Positions 1 through 177 of a DNA stretch of 4,565 nt are shown one piece after another. Position 1 is the first letter of the stretch. Each line of letters starts with the position of its first letter. The notes beneath the pieces were generated by a model that was given only the letters and a program-made list of their open reading frames with translations, was not told where the DNA came from and did not search any database. The translations under genes and the position numbers were made by a program. The stretch is from Escherichia coli (GTDB lineage Bacteria > Pseudomonadota > Gammaproteobacteria > Enterobacterales > Enterobacteriaceae), in NCBI RefSeq assembly GCF_003334335.1, contig NZ_QOWQ01000078.1. One strand, given 5' to 3'.

Positions 1-177
1 TGAATCAGGAGAGCAGATTACCCCCTGGATCTGATTTCAGGCGTTGGGTGTGGATCACTATTGCACCGTTCGTGACAACAGGTAACATACGGTATTGTTA
101 TTGAAGACCTTCAGTTTACTCTTGCCGGAAACGAAGAGATCACCCTCAGGCATTTGTCCTTCAGGGAGCAACAATAA
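1..177 (+). other. 3' end region of the upstream gene (probably T2SS gspM-like); reading frame unresolved. Frame 3 is open from the window start to a TGA at 102-104; frame 1 is open only from 76 and ends at TAA 175-177, overlapping the gspO ATG (TAATG).
   Basis: Manual three-frame reading: frame 1 has stops at 1-3 and 73-75; frame 3 stops at 102-104; frame 2 stops at 32-34 and 83-85. The frame-1 tail (…[31 protein letters not shown]) looks protein-like and ends in a classic coupled stop/start. Assignment to gspM is from the known gsp operon order, not from recognised sequence. Confidence 0.3.

Follow-up and report, generated by a model that had tools for sequence, protein, structure and literature searches.

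Loss of the gspM reading frame upstream of gspO in an Escherichia coli contig very probably reflects an insertion of IS100

The DNA analysed here, a stretch of 4,565 nucleotides from Escherichia coli that is referred to below as the window, begins with 177 bases through which no reading frame runs continuously, directly in front of an intact gspO. The locus therefore raises the question of whether gspM, the gene expected at this place in an operon for a type II secretion system (T2SS), has been shifted out of frame, ends early, or has been broken in another way. A sequence-only reading of the window had described a frameshifted or truncated gspM. Truncation was upheld and frameshifting was not, and the cause is very probably that IS100 (IS21 family, 1954 bp, istA-istB) transposed into this gene, which belongs to the T2SS-alpha operon (gspC-O) of E. 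coli.

Window layout and reading frames upstream of gspO

The list of open reading frames and a comparison with complete E. coli genomes were used to establish the order of genes in the window, which is gspM (3' end)-gspO-bfr-bfd-chiA-tufA (3' end). The segment is the distal end of the gspC-O operon, which encodes the chitinase-secreting T2SS-alpha, together with its downstream neighbours. Its features are as follows.

1..77, minus strand: terminal 77 nt of IS100 (IS21 family), comprising the left inverted-repeat end and the leader upstream of istA
78..82, plus strand: ACAGG, downstream copy of the 5-bp target-site duplication (gspM nt 363-367)
78..177, plus strand: 3' remnant of gspM, nt 363-462 of 462, with codons 122-153 (79-174) and the TAA stop (175-177)
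161..166, plus strand: AGGGAG, a putative Shine-Dalgarno-like sequence that is retained in the gspM remnant and precedes the gspO ATG by 10 nt
177..854, plus strand: gspO, prepilin peptidase of 225 aa, from the list of open reading frames; the matching RefSeq gene is annotated gspO
883-1359, minus strand: bfr
1431-1625, minus strand: bfd
1794-4178, minus strand: chiA
from 4470, minus strand: 3' end of tufA, 96 nt of which lie in the window

In related loci, a gspO gene identical to that of the window carries a Pfam Peptidase_A24 match, and the full gspM gene carries T2SSM (PF04612).

Translation of the window in each frame confirmed all the coordinates that had been read from the letters. Frame 1 is interrupted by TGA at 1-3 and again at 73-75, frame 3 stays open from the edge of the window as far as a TGA stop at 102-104, and the TAA stop at the end of frame 1 is joined to the gspO ATG in the sequence TAATG at 175-179. 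The tail encoded by frame 1 before this coupled junction is the genuine C-terminus of GspM, with window 79-174 corresponding to GspM residues 122-153 and identity at 32 of 32 positions (E=4e-22); gspM, the gene expected at this place, is disrupted. The suggestion that the gene truly ends at 104 did not hold. A complete gspM open reading frame was not found in the window. The remnant has no start codon and is 100% identical, from base 78, to gspM of K-12 and many other strains, and the rest of the gene is separated from it by IS100.

Window positions 1-900 and 1-177 were compared by megablast with 5,426 complete E. coli genomes. Bases 78 onward matched gspM-gspO in about 3,100 genomes, with the homology starting exactly at 78, and bases 1-77 matched at 100% in thousands of chromosomal and plasmid locations, under or beside istA/IS annotations. 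The break in the reading frame is not a chance event, as it falls precisely where a mobile element ends, at 77|78. A frameshifted pseudogene would share with the window an interrupted frame and an intact downstream tail, but homology to the parent gene continues upstream in another frame in such a pseudogene, whereas in the window gspM DNA homology ends at base 78 and the DNA upstream of it is foreign. The TGA at 1-3 has no meaning; it is merely the first three bases of the contig, within IS100, and the frame-3 open reading frame is an accidental open stretch over IS100 DNA and the junction.

Two short open reading frames span the IS100/gspM junction, at 3-104 on the plus strand (33 aa, frame 3) and at 58-183 on the minus strand (41 aa). 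Both result incidentally from the junction, and neither should receive a gene annotation.

The IS100 end, the insertion site and other accounts of the junction

IS100 was first described in Yersinia pestis and is common on plasmids of E. coli, Shigella and Klebsiella as well as on E. coli chromosomes. A 1954-bp IS100 copy in E. coli E89 (L001:3124-5077) ends in the same 77 nt as window 1-77, which match IS100 of the Y. pestis plasmid pCD at 76/77 bases; the E89 copy is 99.3-99.4% identical to the pCD plasmid copies. In the RefSeq annotation of the E89 copy, istA is named 'IS21-like element IS100 family transposase' and istB is named IstB, and both genes are present in the full IS100 copies of E89 and other genomes. 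The IS100 end in the window reads ...CGTTCGTGACA at base 77, the complement of which is 5'-TGTCACGAACGG.... Imperfect terminal inverted repeats with TG...CA ends were found, the left end being TGTCACGAACGG...AGTGATCCAC (complement of window 77 back to 1) and the right end TGTCAACGACGG...AGTGATCCAC, in the E89 locus and in six further contigs described below (L013-L018). The orientation of istA/istB is that of the window minus strand, antisense to the gsp genes. The IS100 part of the window contains no istA or istB sequence, as the contig ends 77 nt into the element.

In its terminal 77 nt, which are identical to those of E. coli copies, and in the TG...CA form of its end, the window resembles known IS100 elements, and its allele shares a 5-bp target duplication with the pCD copy (CATCG on pCD); it differs from them in the insertion site alone. 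A 5-bp target duplication has also been reported for integration of the IS21 family (PMC10122671).

Repeats bound the window on both sides. The repeat stretch at the 5' contig end is exactly 77 nt of IS100, and in the last 77 nt (4489-4565) tufA is the same as tufB, with 4488 as the first distinguishing base. Because exactly 77 nt of repeat stand at each end, the window is a whole short-read contig from a k=77 de Bruijn assembly, and only the tip of IS100 is visible because this contig starts 77 nt inside the repeated element. A reading frame that is lost at a contig edge often marks a repeat boundary of this kind.

IS100 meets gspM exactly at 77|78, corresponding to gspM nt 363. The element very probably inserted at gspM nt 363-367, where it duplicated ACAGG, with istA/istB running antisense to the gsp genes. 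If the insertion was a simple one with a duplication of 5 bp, the predicted left junction is ...GGCACAGG|TGTCAACGACGG, the second part being the IS100 right end, and the predicted product of the interrupted gene is GspM(1-122)+VSTTDEK, a protein of 129 aa. An exact-sequence look-up found this 129-aa protein in 19 public contigs, and the DNA of six of them (L013-L018) was as predicted, ...CTCACTACGGCACAGG|TGTCAACGACGG. ACAGG flanks IS100 at both ends, at window 78-82 and before the right end in L013-L018, the two junctions coming from different assemblies. In the longest of these contigs, L013, a gene fragment with IstB_IS21 (PF01695) adjoins the junction.

The left-junction contigs are identical, or within 1 mismatch, over 3.4 kb upstream to a background that carries a 794-aa ChiA (L006, the ChiA-794 background). 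This same locus provides the empty site, as it matches window 78-4565 with 0 mismatches, the chiA deletion described below included, and holds an intact gspM of 153 aa. As judged from these junctions, the insertion is a primary event at gspM nt 363-367, with ACAGG as the target duplication. The window itself holds just 77 nt of the element; because other assemblies of the same allele extend the picture, a full-length IS100 copy, its far side still joined to the 5' part of gspM, would be expected in this genome.

One of the left-junction contigs, L015 (logan ERR14043727 contig 918, 1-3397), has the same ACAGG-site junction, with 12 mismatches to the other carriers over 3.4 kb. The allele could have been moved by recombination, the site could have been hit twice, or the sample could be mixed.

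Later recombination between IS100 copies, by inversion or deletion, might have left the element near gspO no longer flanked by the 5' part of gspM. Strains with IS100 at this locus have 3-12 matching places that would serve as a substrate for rearrangement, and with the contig stopping inside the element, the linkage lies beyond the window. Nothing calls for such an event, however, and the left-junction contigs (19 blocks) are about as numerous as the short ChiA-794 contigs (20 blocks, 2-5 kb); we regard it as unlikely.

The junction seen in the window would also result if an E89-type insertion, 37 bp upstream at the target CTCCC, had been followed by a deletion of 37 bp next to the element, up to gspM nt 363. 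In the E89-type allele, gene, element and orientation all agree with those of the window and the site is 37 bp away, and E89 is identical to the window across 78-4565 save two indels. A deletion of this kind predicts that the left junction remains at the E89 site, ...CACAGCTCCC|TGTCAACG, as against ...GGCACAGG|TGTCAACG for a primary insertion, and in 19 contigs the left junction is at nt 367. Moreover, both the left-junction contigs and the window match the ChiA-794 background, in which gspM is intact. The deletion was rejected as highly unlikely, because the left junction that a primary insertion predicts was found in exactly that form and overlaps the right junction in the window by exactly 5 bp (ACAGG), the signature of primary insertion.

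An assembly artefact in which IS100 reads and gspM reads were joined into a chimera, the genome having no insertion, might be suspected where a junction lies at a contig end in a repeat. This is more improbable still, as a repeat of exactly k=77 nt at both ends is the result that a de Bruijn assembly gives at a true repeat boundary, the k-mers of the junction must exist in the reads, and the opposite junction, complete with a proper target duplication, is seen in independent assemblies that come from a different assembler.

The chance that a ±1 indel near positions 60-80 moved gspM from frame 3 into frame 1, which had been proposed from the lack of a continuous frame and from frame 3 being open from the edge to 104, is negligible, since the DNA homology switches abruptly at 77|78, bases 1-77 have no gspM homology and are 100% IS100, GspM and the frame-3 peptide are not significantly similar (E=4.6), and the window lacks ...CTCACTACGGC, which stands directly before base 78 wherever a comparison locus is intact.

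IS100 in the distal gsp operon of other genomes

Insertion of IS100 into gspM as seen in the window is an ordinary event, and RefSeq genomes already include annotated IS100 insertions in this gene. Strains E89, BY63/BY68, ETEC1703/1717/1718/1730, I3 and PEC422 carry gspM::IS100 alleles that resemble the window in gene, element and orientation, with gspM split in two, and RefSeq represents the E89-type allele as two gspM pseudogene fragments flanking istA/istB. This allele, found in E89 and about ten genomes, differs from that of the window in its target, which is CTCCC at gspM nt 326-330 rather than ACAGG at nt 363-367 and so lies 37 bp upstream, and chiA is full length in those strains, unlike in the window. 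Strains 2012C-4221 (nt 67), STEC299 (nt 132) and UPEC 536 (nt 431) likewise have IS100 independently in the 462-nt gspM, but at sites that differ from that of the window, and in 2/3 of them the element is in the opposite orientation. The exact junction of the window was absent from all 5,426 complete E. coli genomes searched by megablast; the exact gspM site alone appears to be missing from complete genomes. None of the papers searched mentions IS100 together with gspM.

The wider distribution of IS100 was examined with queries that combined an IS end, in either orientation, with gspK-gspO. The element was found in or next to the gspK-gspO region in 27 records, 17 in one orientation and 10 in the other. 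The earliest genomes to be identified all had the element in the orientation of the window; a bias in orientation was considered and rejected as an artefact of ascertainment, as the search joins pieces on one strand and the query with the flipped element found the 10 records as against 17. Sites were mapped in L001, L019-L022 and L025-L036 (gspC-chiA of complete E. coli genomes), and the window junction at 77|78 was counted among them. This gave 15 distinct IS100 sites, the window's included, of which 14 are in gspJ-gspO (3.9 kb) and one is in chiA.

gspJ: nt 210
gspK: nt 331, 445, 781
gspL: nt 703, 840, 1005
gspM (5 sites in 462 nt): nt 67, 132, 326, 363, 431
gspO: nt 403, 555
chiA: one site

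The duplications at the IS100 sites in the gsp region are of 5-6 bp, without obvious consensus, and both orientations occur. A control query with the adjacent 5.2 kb (3' part of gspD to gspI) found no genome with IS100 inside this segment, and three insertions still farther upstream hit gspC, the 5' part of gspD and an IS3 copy. With 16 sites in gspC-gspO, and with P values that are post hoc and assume independence of the sites, the binomial probability of finding none in the 5.2 kb that make up 49% of the operon is about 2e-5, and that of finding 14 or more in the distal 36% of the operon is about 4e-5.

We consider it possible, though doubtful, that gspJ-gspO is a regional hot spot for IS100 integration. 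The clustering could come from a target preference of IstA/IstB, and selection or sampling are also possible causes. If disrupting one gsp gene is about as neutral as disrupting any other, the skew would point to target choice by IstA/IstB rather than to selection, and such a choice in gspJ-gspO would rest on local DNA structure or a bound protein. AT-richness was considered as a cause of the clustering and found unsupported, the G+C content of gspJ-gspO being 49.6%. The clustering is the only part of these results of wider interest; if real, it bears on how IS21-family elements choose their targets, and the hot spot would offer a natural data set for target selection in this family.

Predicted consequences of the insertion and further decay of the operon

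In K-12, the gspC-O operon is cryptic and repressed by H-NS, and its product is thought to export ChiA (PMC5797941), and GspO is a prepilin peptidase that functions in ChiA secretion via T2SS-alpha (PMC3707838). With IS100 in gspM, the cell would make at most a truncated GspM consisting of residues 1-122 followed by VSTTDEK, with the last 31 residues lost, and both transcription and translational coupling into gspO would be interrupted. The gspO open reading frame is intact, but about 2 kb of IS100 in antisense orientation now lie between it and the gspC promoter. A crude consensus scan for a sigma-70-like promoter facing gspO found none in window 1-900 or in the E89 copy of the element. A truncated GspM and a polar block on gspO are the likely consequences, and T2SS-alpha would then presumably be unable to assemble or function. 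No PDB sequence match to a solved structure of a GspM relative, from which the elements removed by the truncation could be read, was found, even at E<=1, and an Rfam scan of the window gave nothing at the gathering threshold.

For annotation, the locus is to be described as gspM interrupted by IS100 and not as a frameshifted gspM. For biology, the allele would be one more inactivation of a cryptic, H-NS-silenced secretion system and has little weight alone.

The chiA gene of the window (1794-4178, minus strand) carries an in-frame deletion of 309 bp and encodes 794 aa, compared with 897 aa in K-12 and E89. The deletion removes one repeated N-terminal module, roughly residues 53-155, and its breakpoint has a 16-bp microhomology, ACCCACCAGGCATTTT, the window copy of which is at 4024-4039. 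The 794-aa chiA allele was found in 91 database blocks, including one complete chromosome (CM129037.1). Collapse during assembly was considered as the origin of the deletion and rejected, since the identical stretch at the breakpoint is just 16 bp, far below k=77, and since the allele is present in a complete chromosome and in assemblies made with k=31 that run straight through it. In the lineage of the window, the secretion system is altered, and so is its proposed substrate.

Other strains show further damage to the same operon. The gspO gene is frameshifted in ETEC1706 (L021, 3253-3929), gspL has an internal stop in F11 (L030, 1102-2265), and IS1 and ISEc52 insertions are present in gspK-gspL of several genomes. 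This decay in other strains fits a cryptic operon under weak selection.
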